Shown here: positions 29,850 to 37,316 of the stretch, one piece after another
Layout: each line of letters begins with the position of its first letter
Numbering within the stretch: position 1 is the stretch's first letter
NCBI GenBank assembly: GCA_048941015.1
Contig: JBHLNZ010000003.1
Span: 1 to 64,000 of the forward strand
From: Promethearchaeota archaeon
GTDB lineage: Archaea; Asgardarchaeota; Lokiarchaeia; Sigyniarchaeales; SOKP01
Length of the DNA: 64,000 bases
Direction: 5' to 3'
Position numbers and translations under genes: made by a program
Notes under the pieces: model-generated
What the model saw: only the letters and a program-made list of their open reading frames with translations
Database searches by the model: none
Told to the model about the DNA's origin: nothing

Positions 29850-30146
29850 AACTTTAACCCCATGAACTTCTTAAAGGTATTTAATTATAAAACTCAAATT
29901 TATATTTATCTGTAATCCAAATATTACCCCATGAATTAATGATACTAAAATTTGAAAATTACTTTATATTTGTAATGACTGAAACCCGCATATATTCTAT
30001 GAATGCAAGTAATTTATATTTAAGTAATGTATATAAATCTTTCGATTGTGCTTATTTTTAGTCGGAATAATCCTATTGGTTTAAATATTTAAAATTATGA
30101 ACTGGATTTTTTTTAAAAAATATGTTTGAGTTAATATTTAAATTAT

Positions 30147-30755
30147 TTATAAAAAATATGGCATAAATGTAGTAAATCCACAGAATAAACAAATTGCTAT
30201 GCTAATCATTAAGTTTTTCAAAGCTTTTCTTGGATTAACTAAAGGGCGGCTCTTATCAATAAAATACCAAAAGGTCAGAATTAAATGAAGAACTCCATTA
30301 TAAGAACAAAACGCAATTAAATTATAAACTATAGGTAAATCATATAGCATTAAATTTCCCCCACTTAAAGATTCAAAGCTAGAATCTATCAAACCTATTA
30401 AATAGAATATAAATCCATCTGGTAACGGTTCAAGGATCCACATTAGGAAGTATGTAAGGTAATTAAATAAAATTCCAGAAGCTATAATAATATAAATGCA
30501 TCCTAATACTAATCTAACTTTCCTAATTTTACTCGATTCTTTATTTAAGTCCTCATTAGGTTTTAATTGCTGGTGAAAATAAACCCCTCTTAGCTTTAAT
30601 AAGGTCAAAATACCAATAAATAACATGATTATTACTAATATATATTTTGAAAATTTTAAATAAATCAAAAAGAAAATATTAGCTGCTTTTATTACTTGAT
30701 CCAACAAATTGAATAATAGTTTTAGAATATCGACTGCTTCAAATAATAAAATCAT
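30147..30755 (-). CDS. Membrane protein, unknown function
   Basis: About 4 TM segments. Confidence 0.6.
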   Translation of the reverse strand: MILLFEAVDILKLLFNLLDQVIKAANIFFLIYLKFSKYILVIIMLFIGILTLLKLRGVYFHQQLKPNEDLNKESSKIRKVRLVLGCIYIIIASGILFNYLTYFLMWILEPLPDGFIFYLIGLIDSSFESLSGGNLMLYDLPIVYNLIAFCSYNGVLHLILTFWYFIDKSRPLVNPRKALKNLMISIAICLFCGFTTFMPYFL

Positions 30756-30920
30756 CGATAGTCTTTTTATAATAGTTTATTTAAACTCTACAGAAATTAT
30801 TTCTATGTTTTTTATTATTTCTAGCTAAATAAAAAGTTAAATAAACCATACAATTGACTTTCAGACCTAATATGTGAAAAAATAATATAAAGTATTGTTT
30901 TAATCAATTCAATCATTTAA

Positions 30921-32054
30921 TCAGTTTTTTATAAAGTAAAATGGGATAATAGAGAATATAATTATGATTCCTGAAATCATGATAATAACTTCTGTCTCAA
31001 CAAATCCATAAAGATAGGTACCTATGGGAGTGAAAACCACACTTGCCAAAATGCTAAACATAGTAATTAGTTGATAATAAAATACCCTATTTTGGGCTAT
31101 TTCCATCTTAAAAGGAATAAGTTTAATCATAAAAAGACCAGATATAAAGAAGTATACTCCATAGATTACCATGAATAATATGAAATTAACAAACGGTATT
31201 AAGAAGAGAAGTAAACCTATAATTAAAGTTGTGATAAGTAAAGTGCTTTTACAATCATAATTTCTAAATAGAAATCCACCGATTAAATTTCCAAAGGTAA
31301 ATATCAAGATTAGTAAAAACCATAATATTGAGAAAAATGTAATACTAGTTTGTGCTGAAATCCAGGGTTTTATCGTAAAGGAAAACAATCTATCTGAAAA
31401 TGCTAGGAATAGAAATAAGCACATAAGAAATATTGAGCTTTTATTAATAGAATTTCCATTTGGATTTCCCTTTATTCTTTGAATATTGTCTGGATTGTCT
31501 TTTAAAAGGATTGTAAATAATAAAAGTGGTGTAGAAAAAAGAATTCCAATGAAAAAGAAATTAATCCAATTTGAAGTTAAACTGGTCGTAATTAAAAATA
31601 TAAAAATAGGAAATATACTCCCAATAATAGACCCTAATTGAATAAGTAATGCATTTCTGTTTTTAGTACTGGTGTCCGGTGATTGAGAAATCATAATTTT
31701 ATTTATACCAACGGTACAAAGAGAAATAAAGGTTAAAAGAAGGGTATAATAAATACCGAATAATATTAGTGATTCTAGGCTAAAAATTAACAGTATAAAA
31801 TTTATTAAGATGCCAATGCCACTAAAAATTACGAGAAATTTACGTTTAGCATTTTTTTTATCATAGTAAATCGAAATAACAGGTCTTAATAGAAATGCTA
31901 AATAAGAAAAGAACAAAACAATTGAAAACTGGATTGTGTCAATTTTAACAACATTTGAAAAATAGATTGGTAAATAACTGTTAGTATAAATTAGAATCAT
32001 TTCTGTACTAAAATACGTGTAAAAATAGAGAAACATATTAGATTTGTTAATCAT
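30921..32054 (-). CDS. MFS transporter
   Basis: About 12 TM; motif-A-like ISIYYDKKNAKRK; LGSIIGS. Confidence 0.8.
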   Translation of the reverse strand: MINKSNMFLYFYTYFSTEMILIYTNSYLPIYFSNVVKIDTIQFSIVLFFSYLAFLLRPVISIYYDKKNAKRKFLVIFSGIGILINFILLIFSLESLILFGIYYTLLLTFISLCTVGINKIMISQSPDTSTKNRNALLIQLGSIIGSIFPIFIFLITTSLTSNWINFFFIGILFSTPLLLFTILLKDNPDNIQRIKGNPNGNSINKSSIFLMCLFLFLAFSDRLFSFTIKPWISAQTSITFFSILWFLLILIFTFGNLIGGFLFRNYDCKSTLLITTLIIGLLLFLIPFVNFILFMVIYGVYFFISGLFMIKLIPFKMEIAQNRVFYYQLITMFSILASVVFTPIGTYLYGFVETEVIIMISGIIIIFSIIPFYFIKN

Positions 32055-32126
32055 TTTTGATAAACCATATTTTTTATTAAAAGGTTTAAGAAGAAATTTA
32101 AAAACTCATATCTTTAACCACATATC

Positions 32127-32164
32127 AAAGTAAAAAATAAAATAGAGAACCCAAAAAGGATTCT
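32127..32164 (-). terminator. Hairpin plus U-tract after micro-ORF
   Basis: AGAATCC-TTTTT-GGGTTCT followed by CTATTTTATTTTTTACTTT. Confidence 0.5.
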
Positions 32165-32172
32165 ATGATCAT

Positions 32173-32202
32173 CTATGCTCCAGTTTCTCCTGAATATGGC
32201 AT
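32173..32202 (-). CDS. Putative 9-aa micropeptide MPYSGETGA
   Basis: ATG CCA TAT TCA GGA GAA ACT GGA GCA TAG; SD GAGGAGGT 8 nt upstream; TATA-like TTTAAAAA at 32259-32252. Confidence 0.55.
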   Translation of the reverse strand: MPYSGETGA

Positions 32203-32366
32203 AATACCTTACCTCCTCATATGAGTTAGTAGATATTATTCTATAAGTTTGTTTTTAAAGTCCGCTATTATTATATTACAGAAAAAACAAATATAAGATA
32301 TGATTATTTAAATTAATAAAAAATTAATAAGATTACATTTTTAATGATATTAAGTAATAGATTTGA

Positions 32367-35300
32367 ATGCCTGCTCAATTTGACCATGAAACTTTAGAGG
32401 AATTATCTAAAGGGAAAAATTTAAAGCAATTAGAAAGTATTTTCAATAATTTAATAGATGAAATAGTTAGTTATATCAAACTAAAGCCATTATATGAAAA
32501 ATTTACAATTGAATTGAACAACAAAAATCTTAACCAAAAGGACTATGATGAAGAGATTCTTGATTTTGGGGTTAGAAGAGTTGTAAATAATAATAATTTA
32601 ACAATTATATTTTCTAATAAATATTTAGTGTTTTTACCCTTTCTTTTACTACGAGAGGTATACTATTCATTTCTTCCTATAGACATGAGTGAAGTAATTA
32701 AAGTATGTATTAATCAAATTATCGAAAACGACTTAAATCAATTAAGCTATTCTAAAGAATGGAAAAAAATTATTGGAGACGCTTTAGTTAAAAGGGATTT
32801 TAGTAAAAAACTTGAACAATTTGACAAAATGCAAAAGTTCTTCAAAATAGAGGCCAAAGAACCATTTGAAGACACAATACAATTTTTTTTTAAATATCTC
32901 AGAGAAAATCTAATATTAATTAAAAGTGGTAACGTAAAAGAGTTTTATGAAAGAATTTTCAACCAATATACATACAAGACATCTAAATCCATATTTAATA
33001 ACGAAATAATTGAAACTATAAGAGTATTAATATCCCTGAGAGAGATTTCTAATAATTATATAACATTAGCTGATTATTATTCTTTATTTAGTAAAAACAA
33101 AAACGATATTAAACCAAGTATAAGTCTAAGGCAATTTAAAGAAAATATGAAATGGATTAATAAATGTTCTGCTATTGCTCCATCATATGACACTTTTTAT
33201 GGTAGATTGGGTTTATGTGCATTTTGTTGCTTTTTAAAATTTCATCCTCTTATTGAAAAGAGTAAAATTAAAAAATTACTTGAGCAATGGCAATTTTATC
33301 ACTCTCCTAAATTTACAGAAAATGCTTTTGCGACTGAAATTTCTCTGATTTTTTGGGTACCTAAGATATATTTGAACGATTTATTGAATTACTTTGAAAA
33401 GTTAGAAATTAAAGGATATTTAATTGATAAAGAAATCTATTATTTGCTAGATAATACTAATTTTCTAAATTTGAATTATTTTATTGATCCTTCTAATACA
33501 AAGAAAATCATAGATCCTAATTTTAAAGAATATAATAAAAAAAATGAAATAGAACATAAAATTGAATATGATATAGTTCCTTATTCTTATCCTTTGACTC
33601 TTTTTGAATTTTTAATTTTAGATCGGATTAGATATCTTTCTGTAACGGGATTAACGTTTGATAAAAGAATTGAAACTCTAAATGCAGTTAAAGATGACAT
33701 TGAAAATGAATTAAGAAAACAAAAAAAGTTTATCAATGAATTTAAAACAAATTTTAATTCAGTAATGATTAGTTCAGAATTAAAAGATAAGTTTTTACAA
33801 TTTATTGAAAAGAATCAATCAATAGGATTTTTCGAAACATATCATCGATTAGAAATACTTTTAACCTGCTTAAAAATATTGGAAATTGAAGTCTGGAAGC
33901 AAAATCTAAAGGCTAGTACTCATCTAATGCAGAAATATATAGAGGAGAATACCTTTTCAAAAAATTTAGAAATTAACATCCTCTTAAAAAATAAGTACAT
34001 CAGAGAAGCACTAAAGAAATTTATCACCAGATATTTCAATTCTCCTAAAACCTCAAGAAACTTTATATCTGAAATTCAAAAATTTTATAACATTCTAAAT
34101 TCATGTTTTAATCTTAAGATCTTTAATTTAAGTAATATTGGGAGAATTATCAAAGATAACTTAGTAGAAGATATCTTTAATAAAAAAACTGTAAAAATAG
34201 AAAATCTAAAAAAATCAACAACTTTGTATAAAATAACAAATCAAAAAATTGAATCGACAATAGAATCCTTTTTATCTCAAGATCCTCCCATAATAAAACC
34301 ATATTTAATTAATACTATTATAACAAGTGCTTTTGCAAAATATTATCCTATTTTTGTAATAATTGATAATAAGGAAAATAGAGAAAGGCTTGAAAACTTG
34401 AAATCGTATTTTCCAAGGATTTTTATCTACAAAATGTCAGAATTTACTACTAAAGCTGACTTTATATATATACTCTTTTATCTCGTGAATTTAAAAGAGA
34501 AAAAGCTACTTATAACCGCTTTGTATAATATATTCAAAGAATCAATTCACTTTTTAAAAAGGTATTTCTGGAGAGGAGTTGTAAGTGAAAGAAAATTTTT
34601 GCTAAGAGATTTCTATGACTTTGAAAACAATGAATTCTTTTATACGGATGATTTGTTTAATGAACTTTATAATTATTCTCTAAAAATCCTTGGCGATAAA
34701 TTAGAGTGGCCTAATAATCAAATAAACGAAAACTTAAGAGAATATTTATGGCCGAAAAATAAAAGTTTCAATGATTTAGTAAAAAAAGTAAAAAAAAGAA
34801 TATATCACCAAGAAATTGATTTTAATGTGAATAATCTTAATAATTTATTAGAATTTCAAAAAAATTTAGAGTCAACAATCCTTAATAATTCAAAATTTAG
34901 GGAAATAAAAAATAAACCATTCTTTAAAAAGTATGTAAAGTCAATAAAGTTAATTCCTTTATTTAGTAATTTTGGATTTTCTAATTATTTTTTATATATT
35001 CAACCTTTTGATTATAATTTTATTGATTTTAAACTTCTCTCAACTAATAGCTTTCAAGAAATCAAATATCCTGCTTCTATTGACTCCAATCAAATTATTT
35101 ATTACTCTTACATTTTCCCACATAGAAAGCCTAATAAAACATATCTTAATTGGCTAATTAAGTCTAAGAAGAATATTAGTGAATATTGTTTGTTTTATAA
35201 AAAAAAAATTTATGAATTAATGAATTTCAATCGTAACTTAACCAAACTTGGCTGGGATTATTCTTCCATTCGATTTAAATCTTATGTGGAAAATGTCTTA

Positions 35301-35999
35301 TTTGATCGCTCATACAATCCAAAATTTTCAAATATAAAAGAGTTTAATTTAGATTCAATAAATTTATCAGATATTTTCTATCCTGAGTCTCAAGAATTTA
35401 ATGCTTTGACTCACATATATAATACATATTCAATTGATATTAAATCATATTTGGGCACCAAAAAATACACGACAATAGACCAGATTAAATATCTTCTTAA
35501 GAGGAAATTAATTTTTCCGTATCTTTCATTAAAAAACCTAGATTTTGAAGAAAAAATTTTAATAATTTTACCCAATATTATGAAGAAATTTAATGAGGAA
35601 CTTATTAAAATATTTAGCTTCTTTAATTTATGTCATATATATGAAATCGAAGGTGAATTTTTCATTTATGGATTTGAAGATATCAAACAATTTGAAAATG
35701 GTCTTTTAATTGAAATTTGGTTTCCAAAGTGTGAATTGGATGAATTTTTTGAAGTTTTTGACCTTATTTTCGAATATTTCAAAATTAAACATTATCTTAT
35801 CTTAACTGACTTAGTAGATGGAAAACACTTACTTAAGTCCGTTTATGGGAATTTGAAGTTTTTAGAAGAGTACAATCCTTTAAAAAATCTTATTTGGAAC
35901 GATAAAGATAAAATTTGGATGAATCATAAACTATTTAATGAAAAATTTGAACCATTTTATCCAGATTTAATTTATGGAAATAAAAAAGAAGAGACTTAA
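32367..35999 (+). CDS. Large (1210 aa) multi-module protein, probable tandem wHTH/Lrp-AsnC(RAM)-like regulator
   Basis: Repeated Lrp-linker-like segments (FYGRLGLCAFCCFL, FSNFGFSNYFLYI, LKNLDFEEKILIIL); N-terminal degenerate zincin-like LLREVYY. Confidence 0.55.
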   Translation: MPAQFDHETLEELSKGKNLKQLESIFNNLIDEIVSYIKLKPLYEKFTIELNNKNLNQKDYDEEILDFGVRRVVNNNNLTIIFSNKYLVFLPFLLLREVYYSFLPIDMSEVIKVCINQIIENDLNQLSYSKEWKKIIGDALVKRDFSKKLEQFDKMQKFFKIEAKEPFEDTIQFFFKYLRENLILIKSGNVKEFYERIFNQYTYKTSKSIFNNEIIETIRVLISLREISNNYITLADYYSLFSKNKNDIKPSISLRQFKENMKWINKCSAIAPSYDTFYGRLGLCAFCCFLKFHPLIEKSKIKKLLEQWQFYHSPKFTENAFATEISLIFWVPKIYLNDLLNYFEKLEIKGYLIDKEIYYLLDNTNFLNLNYFIDPSNTKKIIDPNFKEYNKKNEIEHKIEYDIVPYSYPLTLFEFLILDRIRYLSVTGLTFDKRIETLNAVKDDIENELRKQKKFINEFKTNFNSVMISSELKDKFLQFIEKNQSIGFFETYHRLEILLTCLKILEIEVWKQNLKASTHLMQKYIEENTFSKNLEINILLKNKYIREALKKFITRYFNSPKTSRNFISEIQKFYNILNSCFNLKIFNLSNIGRIIKDNLVEDIFNKKTVKIENLKKSTTLYKITNQKIESTIESFLSQDPPIIKPYLINTIITSAFAKYYPIFVIIDNKENRERLENLKSYFPRIFIYKMSEFTTKADFIYILFYLVNLKEKKLLITALYNIFKESIHFLKRYFWRGVVSERKFLLRDFYDFENNEFFYTDDLFNELYNYSLKILGDKLEWPNNQINENLREYLWPKNKSFNDLVKKVKKRIYHQEIDFNVNNLNNLLEFQKNLESTILNNSKFREIKNKPFFKKYVKSIKLIPLFSNFGFSNYFLYIQPFDYNFIDFKLLSTNSFQEIKYPASIDSNQIIYYSYIFPHRKPNKTYLNWLIKSKKNISEYCLFYKKKIYELMNFNRNLTKLGWDYSSIRFKSYVENVLFDRSYNPKFSNIKEFNLDSINLSDIFYPESQEFNALTHIYNTYSIDIKSYLGTKKYTTIDQIKYLLKRKLIFPYLSLKNLDFEEKILIILPNIMKKFNEELIKIFSFFNLCHIYEIEGEFFIYGFEDIKQFENGLLIEIWFPKCELDEFFEVFDLIFEYFKIKHYLILTDLVDGKHLLKSVYGNLKFLEEYNPLKNLIWNDKDKIWMNHKLFNEKFEPFYPDLIYGNKKEET

Positions 36000-36046
36000 T
36001 ATTTACCTAAGAATATATGTCCTAAAATTTAGTAAAATCCAAATAT

Positions 36047-36496
36047 TCATTTAAAATAATTAGGAAGAAGCACGATACAGTTAAATTTATTAAGATAAGC
36101 AATTAAATAATTAATTAATCGTTTAATATCGCGTTTAGTTTCGGTAGCATTTGCATTAATGTAATCTGCGAAAGCTTTTGGTCCAATTGCTACTAATAAG
36201 CCAGATAGATCGCTTTCTCTCTTTATAAAATACCAAAAGGTATTATCTTTTTCATTATCCTTTACCAAAAGTAGCATCCAAGGATTTAGAGTCCAATCTT
36301 CTCCCTCAGGATTAATTACCTTTTCTATTGCGTTTCCAGTTGTATATTTTTTAGACATTTTAATAGCTTTTATAAGACTATTAAAGAAGCTTCTTTTAAT
36401 CTTTAAATATCCATCAAAGTAACTACTTGCATCATATAAATCTAAATTCTCAATGTTTTCATCTGAATATTTAATCAAAACTTTCCATGTCTTCAT
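36047..36496 (-). CDS. Hypothetical protein (149 aa)
   Basis: ATG ORF in the run downstream of the RNase P genes. Confidence 0.65.
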   Translation of the reverse strand: MKTWKVLIKYSDENIENLDLYDASSYFDGYLKIKRSFFNSLIKAIKMSKKYTTGNAIEKVINPEGEDWTLNPWMLLLVKDNEKDNTFWYFIKRESDLSGLLVAIGPKAFADYINANATETKRDIKRLINYLIAYLNKFNCIVLLPNYFK

Positions 36497-36513
36497 GAGT
36501 TCATATTTTAAAA

Positions 36514-36939
36514 TTATTTTGTACTAATTTCTTCTATATCTGTTACCTTGGATATATTTTTAAATTTATCTAAAGCGATTTTTAAATCTTTATATCTTTC
36601 ATCATTAGAGTTTAAATTAAGGTAGCATTCATAGATAATTTCATTTCCTTTGAGAATTAAACCAGAAGTATGGATTATTTCAAATTTTTGAAGCTCTTCA
36701 ATAAATTTTTCTAACTCTTTACTTTTTATATTTACTCCCATTGAAAAGATCTTAATAATTCTTTCTTTTTTAACTGGATATATCGTTAATCTCATGAACT
36801 TCTTAATATTTGATTGAATTATTAATAAAAATGGAAACCCAACTGAAGTATTCTTTTTTGGCAGATCTATTAATAAATTTAAAGGTAAAGACTTATCATA
36901 TCGTTTAATATAGGCTTTAGAAAAATGTTGTTTCTCCAT
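36514..36939 (-). CDS. Hypothetical protein, possible C-terminal ACT-like fold
   Basis: EIIHTSGL...YECYL pattern. Confidence 0.55.
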   Translation of the reverse strand: MEKQHFSKAYIKRYDKSLPLNLLIDLPKKNTSVGFPFLLIIQSNIKKFMRLTIYPVKKERIIKIFSMGVNIKSKELEKFIEELQKFEIIHTSGLILKGNEIIYECYLNLNSNDERYKDLKIALDKFKNISKVTDIEEISTK

Positions 36940-36971
36940 TTTTTTGTTAACTCTTTCTTTTTCAAATTTTA

Positions 36972-37316
36972 TTAAATCTTTTTATTAATTATTAAATCTT
37001 TCCATCTTTTTATAACTTTAATAGTACCTGAAGTTTTTATTGGAGAAAATATTACCCGCTTTCCAGATATCTCTTGTATCAAAGTTAAGGAAGATATTAT
37101 AATTTCTTTAGTTTTATTTGAGCATCTTATTATACCATAATTCTTTATTAAATCTAATTCTAATAACCATAACCCTGCTTTATTTGCTCCTTTTAATCCA
37201 AAATATCTCCATATTGATGTCCAAATTGATTTTAAAATTTCATTTCGCTCTAATTTGTCCTTTTCTTCTTTGATAATTATAAAAAGTATATATCTACTAC
37301 GTTCTAATTTTCCTAT
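36972..37316 (-). CDS. rnp2: RNase P protein Pop5/Rpp14 (missed by ORF track; ATA/ATT start)
   Basis: 114 aa: (M)GKLERSRYILFII...SIWRYFGLKG...GIIRC...KTSGTIKVIK; directly after rnp3 with GAGGGG SD. Confidence 0.9.
   Translation of the reverse strand: MGKLERSRYILFIIIKEEKDKLERNEILKSIWTSIWRYFGLKGANKAGLWLLELDLIKNYGIIRCSNKTKEIIISSLTLIQEISGKRVIFSPIKTSGTIKVIKRWKDLIINKKI

Follow-up and report, generated by a model that had tools for sequence, protein, structure and literature searches.

The 64,000-nucleotide stretch analyzed here, referred to as the window, comprises positions 1 to 64,000 of contig JBHLNZ010000003.1 of the Promethearchaeota archaeon assembly GCA_048941015.1. It contains a nine-codon gene, encoding the peptide MPYSGETGA, that sits between a transporter gene and the gene for a very large protein. 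The micro-gene is located on the minus strand, within a 312-bp gap (32055-32366) that separates the open reading frame (ORF) of a 377-amino acid transporter of the major facilitator superfamily (MFS; 30921..32054, minus strand; Pfam MFS_1 7.5e-9, with 9 hydrophobic segments) from the ORF of a divergently transcribed 1,210-amino acid protein (32367..35999, plus strand). Reading directly along the minus strand, a TATA-like box TTTAAAAA (32252..32259) is found ~54 nt 5′ of the ATG and is followed by a Shine-Dalgarno (SD)-like sequence GAGGAGGT (32211..32218) located 8 nt ahead of the ATG at 32202, and by the micro-ORF itself (32173..32202), consisting of nine codons and a stop (ATG CCA TAT TCA GGA GAA ACT GGA GCA TAG), the frame of which is closed by an in-frame TAA two codons upstream. 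Directly 3′ of the micro-ORF lies a hairpin with a 7-bp stem and a 5-nt loop (AGAATCC-TTTTT-GGGTTCT; 32146..32164, minus strand), and next to it a T-rich tract (32131..32145, minus strand) that is the likely end of the micro-gene transcript. Hairpin and T-tract together form the sole terminator-like site between 31800 and 32600, a region in which 0.1 would be expected from shuffled sequence. Beyond this terminator is a second box, ATGAGTTTTTAAAT (32096..32109, minus strand), that resembles a B recognition element (BRE) and TATA box and is situated ~46 nt 5′ of the MFS start. The elements of the micro-gene, the MFS gene on the same strand, the gap and the divergent ORF had all been described in an initial annotation that a model made from the sequence alone, and each of them was found in its place when the sequence was re-read and the ORF coordinates and Pfam match were examined. 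A scan for MPY-type micro-ORFs indicates that MPYSGETGA is unique in its own genome, and a DNA search of that genome with the gap sequence found no repeated copies of the element. An Rfam scan of 30000-37000 at E up to 1 returned only a chance miRNA match, and a search for operators in the gap via inverted repeats gave AT-rich matches only.

Loci of homologues of the 1,210-amino acid protein (hereafter the large protein) were fetched and their flanks were read with filters for two types of peptide gene, namely a leaderless ORF of 8-14 codons, or a precursor of 36-46 amino acids with a signal-peptide-like N-terminus. As the initial annotation had anticipated, homologous large genes carry adjacent conserved micro-ORFs: a peptide gene is present at 36 of the 42 assessable loci of the same GTDB genus and, among 19 loci sampled in other genera of the family, at 11, within ~1.2 kb of the large gene on either side. 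The background of these filters in the 3.59-Mb genome of the window is 0.0098 per kb for the leaderless type and 0.0045 per kb for the signal-peptide type. Judged from these loci, the adjacency of micro-ORF and large gene is not chance. Throughout the leaderless clade a micro-ORF occupies the same place (25/25 assessable loci, including one that is truncated where its contig stops). At the loci of the closest orthologues of the large protein (55-56% identity), the MFS gene is again divergent and is accompanied by a micro-ORF of this type, such as MPYGGENGG or MPYAEGDG, each with a GGAGG-like SD, a TATA-like box 5′ and a hairpin with a T-run 3′. A group at 40% identity likewise has an MFS gene and a micro-ORF of 8-14 codons, such as MPGTADATP, MPGEHGIAP, MPNSGIIP and MNPGLAGGPPRY. 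Most leaderless ORFs (22/24) begin with Met-Pro, and an SD of the GAGG or GGTGA type lies 7-9 nt ahead of the start in 23 of the 24 loci, the remaining one, L067, having AGTGA at 5 nt. The TATA-like box is found at an equal distance in the orthologues, as TTTAAAAATATATA in L002 and L004, and as the TTTATATAC and TTTAAATAC types in the A2 loci. Pro codons of the 24 ORFs differ at the third base only (CCA/CCT at codon 2 and CCC/CCT/CCA at the last codon), and length differences between these ORFs amount to whole codons. Their C-terminal residues are P, G, A, Y, K, V or L, and none is N or D. A hairpin is present in all leaderless loci, T runs follow it in every orthologous locus, and among 13 aligned loci of one sub-clade, compensatory changes are seen at 8 of the 13 hairpin base pairs. 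Given the conservation of SD, start and frame, the synonymous changes at Pro codons, the whole-codon length differences and the low background of the filters, the nine-codon unit is a real, translated and selected gene, the expression of which we infer from its sequence.

Several micro-ORFs depart from this pattern. In L010/L054 (G020:C52), ATT replaces the ATG of the other micro-ORFs, still 7 nt from GAGGT, and is either a non-canonical start or the mark of a dying copy. L045 (G048:C87) has lost its stop (TAA to TTA) compared with its near-identical sister L011, and its peptide is four residues longer as a result, the frame running on into the hairpin's 5′ arm. Contigs of at least three genomes end inside or at the intergenic region of the micro-gene, as seen in L003/L074 (G022:C55), L047/L071 (G049:C70) and L106 (G011:C107:22005), with the break exactly at the SD or ATG in genomes G011 and G049, and the apparent absence of the family from G011 is a contig break right at the micro-gene. 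These breaks could reflect strain-level hypervariability of the peptide region, as for pherotypes, or simply AT-rich sequence. Finally, at L095 from another genus (G074:C2, 1729-2410), two tandem micro-genes encode MPYSGEIGG, which is nearly the window peptide. Here, the TATA box is located ~27 nt ahead of the ATG and no SD is present, a layout that suggests a leaderless mRNA, and a TTCAC...GTGAA palindrome that could be an operator flanks each TATA box.

The second type of peptide gene points to the origin of the first. Paralogues of the large protein, with ~30-35% identity to that of the window, are found without an MFS gene and with adjacent genes of 36-46 codons, which are placed either divergently upstream of the large gene, sometimes in two to four tandem copies, or just downstream of it; tandem peptide genes (2-4) are a feature of several loci. 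Such precursors account for 11 of the 36 peptide-positive loci of the genus. Each consists of a K/R-rich N-terminus, a hydrophobic stretch and a small-x-small site, with S-Y-A, S-H-A, C-F-A, G-M-A and similar residues at -3/-1, followed by a tail of 8-13 residues, for example ETFPGSQGGP, NWYPADGQGGP or VGYFPGGGTP. The tails have the character of the leaderless peptides, in that an aromatic residue or Met precedes Pro, small residues, and Gly or an acidic residue, with Pro often in last position, and their core, x-P-small-x-x-G/D/E-x-x-P/G, equals the leaderless core. Precursors from other genera that have a signal-peptide-like N-terminus end in ...MLMPGCSESGP or ...IPGCGEAAP, which is the leaderless MPGC-type core, and in one out-group precursor this core starts at an internal Met. 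Pfam and NCBIfam gave nothing useful for the small precursors. In the tree of large proteins, the leaderless-plus-MFS loci form one clade that is nested among signal-peptide lineages, and a second, independent leaderless clade, with 10-residue peptides of the MFRNGDGGIP type, is found inside the signal-peptide clade of another genus. From these comparisons, the micro-peptide seems to correspond to the mature end of what was an exported pro-peptide before the export signal was lost, and the signal-peptide-like N-terminus on precursors with the same core would place the peptide outside of the cell. The peptides diversify fast between close relatives and follow the tree of their partner, as pherotypes do. 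At one locus of a divergent large-protein paralogue, L026 (G003:C31, 4585-5607), a type I signal peptidase gene (Peptidase_S26) lies directly 5′ of the large gene and is co-directional with it; no peptide gene was found at this locus.

The partner conserved with the peptide gene is the large protein. It has no predicted membrane segment and no hydrophobic stretch that exceeds the threshold, nor did Pfam or NCBIfam give a useful match or assign it to a family. Within the GTDB genus of the window, 39 of 42 genomes encode a homologue; across one GTDB family the count is 114 of 131, some genomes having as many as five copies, and none of the 19 genomes examined in three sister families has one. 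More than 120 clusters are on record in public databases, every one annotated as "hypothetical" and derived from Loki/Promethearchaeota metagenome-assembled genomes. A profile of the C-terminal half searched against 1.84 billion representatives matched 182 proteins, and those listed are full-length members or fragments, with no distant related family among them. In genome G128, which has five matches, three members of the family, one of them broken, are located within 70 kb (G128:C1:592851-662322), suggesting that the family forms local clusters in some genomes.

An AlphaFold model of the large protein, made with 27 homologues, has a pLDDT of 83.8 and a pTM of 0.85, and a separate model of the C-terminal 441 residues has a pLDDT of 86.9. 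The model divides into an N-terminal domain (aa 1-205; 32367..32981, plus strand), a first pair of Lrp/AsnC-like modules that is split by a helical insert of ~170 amino acids (aa ~210-745; 32994..34601, plus strand), and a second such pair that is the most conserved part of the protein (aa ~800-1185; 34764..35921, plus strand). By structure comparison, the N-terminal domain appears to have a zincin-metallopeptidase-like fold without zinc ligands. Catalytic domains of zincin peptidases (M1, M2, M3, M4, M30, M36 and M48 peptidases, minigluzincins and SprT, including thermolysin and LTA4 hydrolase) make up approximately half of the top 50 VIA-align rows, with Z of 6.1-8.3, which is within the range that the tool calls common. 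The initial annotation had proposed that the segment LLREVYY (aa 94-100; 32646..32666, plus strand) is a degenerate HExxH-like motif, and in the model this segment does lie on a helix of the zincin-like domain. In 28 members, conservation reaches 90% or more at L95, R96 and E97, R96-E97 being nearly invariant. The family consensus at the HExxH position is L-L-R-E-A-Y-K/Y, and the next helix reads I-N-Q-x-V-E-x-D where thermolysin-type enzymes read N-E-x-x-S-D. The family is without an invariant His or Cys and has few invariant polar residues. The zincin peptidase fold is made to hold an extended peptide, and the N-terminal head is best read, at the level of the modeled fold only, as a metal-less pseudo-peptidase.

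Both module pairs are matched best by the Lrp-like siroheme decarboxylase NirDL. For the first pair, NirDL (4czc) aligns over 297 of 305 residues at Z 14.0 with a Foldseek probability of 1.0, and the Lrp regulators 2p5v, 8q90 and 2e7w follow at Z 5.9-6.2. For the second pair, NirDL aligns over 267 residues at Z 10.4 (Foldseek E 2.8e-6), with the AsnC/Lrp regulators 2ia0, 2dbb, 1ri7 and 2cg4 at Z 4.9-5.7. The matches to Lrp/AsnC regulators span 129-148 residues (93 for 2e7w). A winged helix-turn-helix (wHTH) followed by a RAM domain (beta-alpha-beta-beta-alpha-beta) is the arrangement seen at the fold level, and the repeated wHTH/Lrp-like modules that had been noticed in the sequence can now be counted as four. 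Pfam HTH_AsnC or AsnC_trans_reg gave no match at E up to 1 in any of the 27 members, and in the protein atlas the whole protein gave only weak HTH_AsnC/HTH_24 leads below 0.8 and the N-terminal part gave nothing. The model is consistent with a protein composed of four Lrp/AsnC-like wHTH and RAM modules and a metal-less zincin-like head. As such, it looks like a ligand-sensing regulator, the modules of which may bind DNA. Per-domain divergence is lowest in the C-terminal quarter and highest in the N-terminal three quarters. A mosaic pair, L020 and L068 (G001:C111 and G057:C40), both of which have three to four tandem signal-peptide precursor genes, differs at 48-58% in the N-terminal three quarters of the large protein versus only 11.5% in Lrp-like module 4, a pattern pointing to recombination or to diversifying selection acting on the putative sensor part.

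The MFS transporters encoded beside the closest orthologues of the large gene share 61-68% identity with that of the window, whereas those beside the 40%-identity group share ~30%. Counterparts of the second promoter-like box are found in L002 and L004 (ATGAGTTTATAAAT / ATGAGTTTTTAAAT) and in the A2 loci (the GTGGAGTTTAAAAG type), and in the compared loci the box is always downstream of the micro-gene terminator. A conserved box between the terminator and the MFS start means that the MFS gene probably has its own promoter. The orientation of the micro-gene is variable, as it is convergent with the MFS gene in L007 and L009, and is inverted to point toward the large gene in L067. On either side of the deep split in the leaderless clade, the MFS gene remains next to the pair of peptide gene and large gene despite changes in both outer flanks, and this linkage withstands inversions. 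Linkage that is kept despite ~30% identity, changed flanks and inversions argues for a functional link. We regard the MFS as a frequent, not universal, partner of the pair and as a putative peptide transporter that could act in either direction. Neighboring genes other than the large gene vary between loci, and the neighbors of the second leaderless clade (a Ras-like GTPase, an aminotransferase, a methyltransferase and a ThiF-family gene) are unrelated. Tailoring-type enzymes are encoded beside some loci of other genera, including ThiF (L087, L092), a B12-binding radical SAM protein (L085), a SAM methyltransferase (L093, L094) and GNAT (L084). We set these aside as tailoring enzymes because they are not conserved even between sister loci and are probably coincidental. 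ThiF-family genes in particular are found beside only 2 of ~60 loci examined, with no counterpart beside close relatives, and no ThiF domain is present among the window neighbors. Elsewhere in the genome of the window there are seven matches to Opp/Dpp-type binding proteins (SBP_bac_5), making re-import of a peptide feasible via Opp-type systems.

Given these features, we consider the chances about even that the peptide is an exported oligopeptide signal sensed by the cytoplasmic 1,210-amino acid protein, in a manner resembling RRNPP and LCP systems with unrelated parts. The micro-gene would be transcribed from its own TATA box as an mRNA of ~100 nt ending at the hairpin and T-tract, and the micro-ORF would be translated from its strong SD. 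The peptide would then leave the cell, probably minus Met1, as Pro follows. A Sec-type signal peptide would direct its exit in the ancestral form, and the leaderless form would use a different route, most obviously the adjacent MFS. Once concentrated enough, the peptide would re-enter via the MFS or one of the Opp-type systems of the genome and bind to the large protein, with the groove of the dead zincin-like head or an interface of the RAM domains as its site; binding would change how the four fused Lrp-like modules act on DNA. We propose that the large protein is the cytoplasmic receptor of the peptide and probably a transcription regulator. That the leaderless core is the tail of exported-type precursors, and that the large protein has no predicted membrane segment, supports the idea of signaling. 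A more elaborate version, which we offer tentatively and rate somewhat below even, is that of an archaeal (Asgard) peptide pheromone in which the dead zincin head binds the peptide, a single-chain tetramer of Lrp modules provides the DNA output, and Sec-exported pro-peptides have given rise to leaderless micro-genes of 8-10 residues at least twice. As part of this version, a dead-zincin and Lrp receptor class would have no relative among known peptide sensors.

A number of observations weigh against such a signaling role. With the filters used, no peptide gene was found in 6 of the 42 loci of the genus and in 8 of the 19 loci elsewhere. The MFS gene is absent from the signal-peptide loci of the genus and from the second leaderless clade, and it is present beside one signal-peptide locus (L099) as well as beside two loci with no detected peptide gene (L085, L091), so that the MFS is at most a putative exporter. 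The proposal that the MFS replaces the lost signal peptide is weakened by the same distribution. Furthermore, because the leaderless clade is monophyletic, the association of leaderless peptides with an MFS counts as a single evolutionary event. With regard to the large protein, neither a profile of the N-terminal domain run against PDB sequences nor the protein atlas gave a link to zincins at the sequence level, which is why the assignment is confined to the fold, where it relies on moderate Z (6-8.3) and a resemblance of motifs. NirDL, the best structural match of the Lrp-like modules, is an enzyme, so DNA binding by these modules is not a given; the mean net charge is +4.2 for HTH4, and the other HTH segments are near neutral and unremarkable. 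Co-variation of peptide and receptor had been put forward in the initial annotation as a check; a crude comparison of per-domain divergence between pairs with the same and with different peptides found no domain that co-varies with the peptide. The suggestion of RRNPP-like signaling in that annotation stands in part: the core is the tail of signal-peptide-like precursors and the partner has no predicted membrane segment, but the MFS is not universal and DNA binding is something that we infer.

An alternative that we regard as unlikely, though less so than the others considered, is that the peptide is a secreted product, be it antimicrobial, partner-directed or similar to a peptide that is made by ribosomes and modified after translation (RiPP), that the large protein regulates, chaperones or modifies and that the MFS exports in the way that MccC does. 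The succession of micro-ORF, terminator hairpin and MFS gene resembles that of mccA, terminator and MccC (PMC4231749), the tailoring-type enzymes beside some loci in other genera would suit such a pathway, and NirDL is an enzyme. Nevertheless, no tailoring enzyme is conserved by the pair even in close relatives and none is found near the window locus, the large protein lacks an invariant His or Cys and has few invariant polar residues, and 0 of 24 leaderless peptides end in the Asn/Asp that microcin-C chemistry requires. A microcin-C-type precursor specifically was rejected on account of these C-termini and of the absence of a conserved ThiF enzyme nearby. Sec-type signal peptides on precursors of 36-46 amino acids are typical of pheromone pro-peptides and unusual for RiPP precursors, which counts against a RiPP-like product. 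Quite unlikely, in our view, is a cell-autonomous arrangement in which the leaderless peptide stays inside the cell as a ligand or small-protein modulator of the large protein, with the MFS as a regulated target or an unrelated carrier. It would account for a window peptide without an export signal, for a second leaderless clade without an adjacent transporter and for an MFS gene with its own promoter. Against it stand the homologous ancestral cores, which as tails of signal-peptide-like precursors should have been outside the cell, the persistence of MFS linkage across the deep split of the leaderless clade and through inversions, and the fact that leaderless 8-amino acid peptides are secreted in Bacillota (PMC10518010).

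The remaining explanations deny the peptide a role of its own. Nine-codon leaders of bacterial efflux genes act by ribosome-dependent attenuation, and the micro-ORF could in principle be such a leader peptide (an upstream ORF) controlling the MFS gene at the hairpin and T-tract, since in the window the MFS gene follows all three elements on the same strand, and the 5′ arm of the hairpin would be masked by a ribosome positioned at the stop codon. However, a conserved BRE/TATA-like box intervenes between terminator and MFS start, the micro-gene is convergent with the MFS gene in two loci and inverted in a third, and homologous peptide genes occur with no MFS at all as well as downstream of the large gene. 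Moreover, the peptide contains no run of a single amino acid for a ribosome to sense. Because the micro-gene is bounded by a promoter and a terminator of its own and does not always run in the direction of the MFS gene, it is not a leader peptide of that gene, which makes this explanation highly improbable. The possibility that the unit is a small noncoding RNA with an incidental open frame is one that we can scarcely credit. The transcript would be only ~100 nt and would end in a conserved hairpin with compensatory changes, and short ORFs are common in AT-rich DNA; yet all 24 loci retain the SD spacing, the start and stop codons and the frame, conserved Pro codons change only synonymously, and the sequence from start to stop varies beyond what a structural RNA would tolerate while the frame is kept. 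In addition, longer coding precursors end in a segment homologous to the ORF, and no Rfam family matches.

If the peptide is indeed an exported signal, its closest counterparts are found in bacteria. In Streptococcus pyogenes, a 24-bp ORF encodes the mature 8-residue SIP/LCP peptide with no secretion or processing signals, and such peptides are secreted and re-imported, their transport occurring outside of the canonical machineries (PMC10518010). By analogy, this offers a precedent for mature 8-amino acid peptides encoded without an export signal. As in the LCP/RopB clan, the ultrasmall ORF of the window (27 bp and a stop, compared with 24 bp) corresponds to a mature peptide of 8-9 residues, is located beside a gene for a cytoplasmic-type regulator, was missed by annotation pipelines, and belongs to a set of peptides that diversify between lineages. 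In contrast, the proposed receptor here is a 1,210-amino acid protein with a zincin-like head and four Lrp-like modules rather than a TPR-type Rgg/RopB of ~280 amino acids, the host is an Asgard archaeon, the peptides are rich in Pro, Gly and acidic residues whereas those of the clan are hydrophobic, and an MFS gene is linked. No Rgg-like structure is among the listed fold matches of the large protein and no Pfam match was obtained. The precursors at the paralogous loci resemble the Phr/PapR-type pro-peptides of RRNPP(A) systems (Rap-Phr, PlcR-PapR, NprR-NprX, Rgg-SHP, AimR-AimP), being 36-46 amino acids long with an N-terminal export signal, having the active part at the C-terminus, and being encoded beside a cytoplasmic partner, with tandem copies. 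They differ in that the fold of the putative receptor appears unrelated and the host is archaeal. No TPR was matched by Pfam at E 1 among the 27 members, and no RRNPP receptor appears among the listed fold matches, the 170-amino acid insert not having been queried separately. With an apparently unrelated receptor fold and an archaeal host, the system does not appear to be a member of the RRNPP or LCP families.

Similar comparisons can be made for the other parts. Microcin C is produced from a heptapeptide gene, mccA, that is followed by a terminator, together with the ThiF-type adenylyltransferase MccB and the MFS exporter MccC (PMC4231749). Shared with this cluster are a micro-ORF of fewer than 10 codons, a terminator hairpin directly after it, which would give an excess of the short transcript, and an MFS gene. 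The differences are that no ThiF-type enzyme is conserved, there is no C-terminal Asn, the large partner has no adenylation domain, and the micro-gene and MFS gene appear to have separate promoters. The Lrp/AsnC regulators and the Lrp-like siroheme decarboxylases NirDL and AhbA/B have the same module of wHTH and RAM (ferredoxin-like) domains, two modules of the large protein pack as in the NirDL pseudo-dimer, and RAM domains of the Lrp/AsnC family bind small ligands; what sets the large protein apart is the presence of four modules in one chain behind a peptidase-like head, the 170-amino acid helical insert, and the lack of a Pfam match at E 1. With the gluzincins (thermolysin M4, M1 aminopeptidases and minigluzincins), the modeled head would share the catalytic-domain fold, the placement of helices and the general-base Glu (R-E for H-E), whereas the zinc ligands are replaced (H to R, H to K/Y and E to Q) and the likeness is at the fold level only. 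As all three ligands are replaced, hydrolysis by the zincin mechanism is not expected. A zincin-like head is also found in regulators of the IrrE/ImmA type.

To our knowledge, cell-to-cell peptide signaling with cytoplasmic receptors is known only from Bacillota and their phages. Our literature search found no report of such peptide signaling in archaea and no paper on the module of micro-peptide and large protein. Recurring as it does in an entire archaeal family, the pairing is a strong candidate for peptide signaling in archaea. A whole family of Loki-type Asgard archaea carries the cassette of peptide and partner, the latter in the great majority of its genomes as given above. If the reading is correct, it would add a social or syntrophy-related layer of signaling to the closest prokaryotic relatives of eukaryotes, as well as a new peptide-sensor architecture. 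The parts are open to experiment, as the peptides of 8-13 residues can be synthesized, the structural model of the partner is confident, and an MFS gene is linked. More generally, genes of 8-10 codons that are overlooked by gene callers can be recovered through comparative genomics.

Outside of the three genes described, the module is flanked by minus-strand ORFs at 30147-30755, 36047-36496 and 36514-36939, encoding proteins of 202, 149 and 141 amino acids, respectively, without a Pfam or NCBIfam match. A TFB gene is also located near the window locus.

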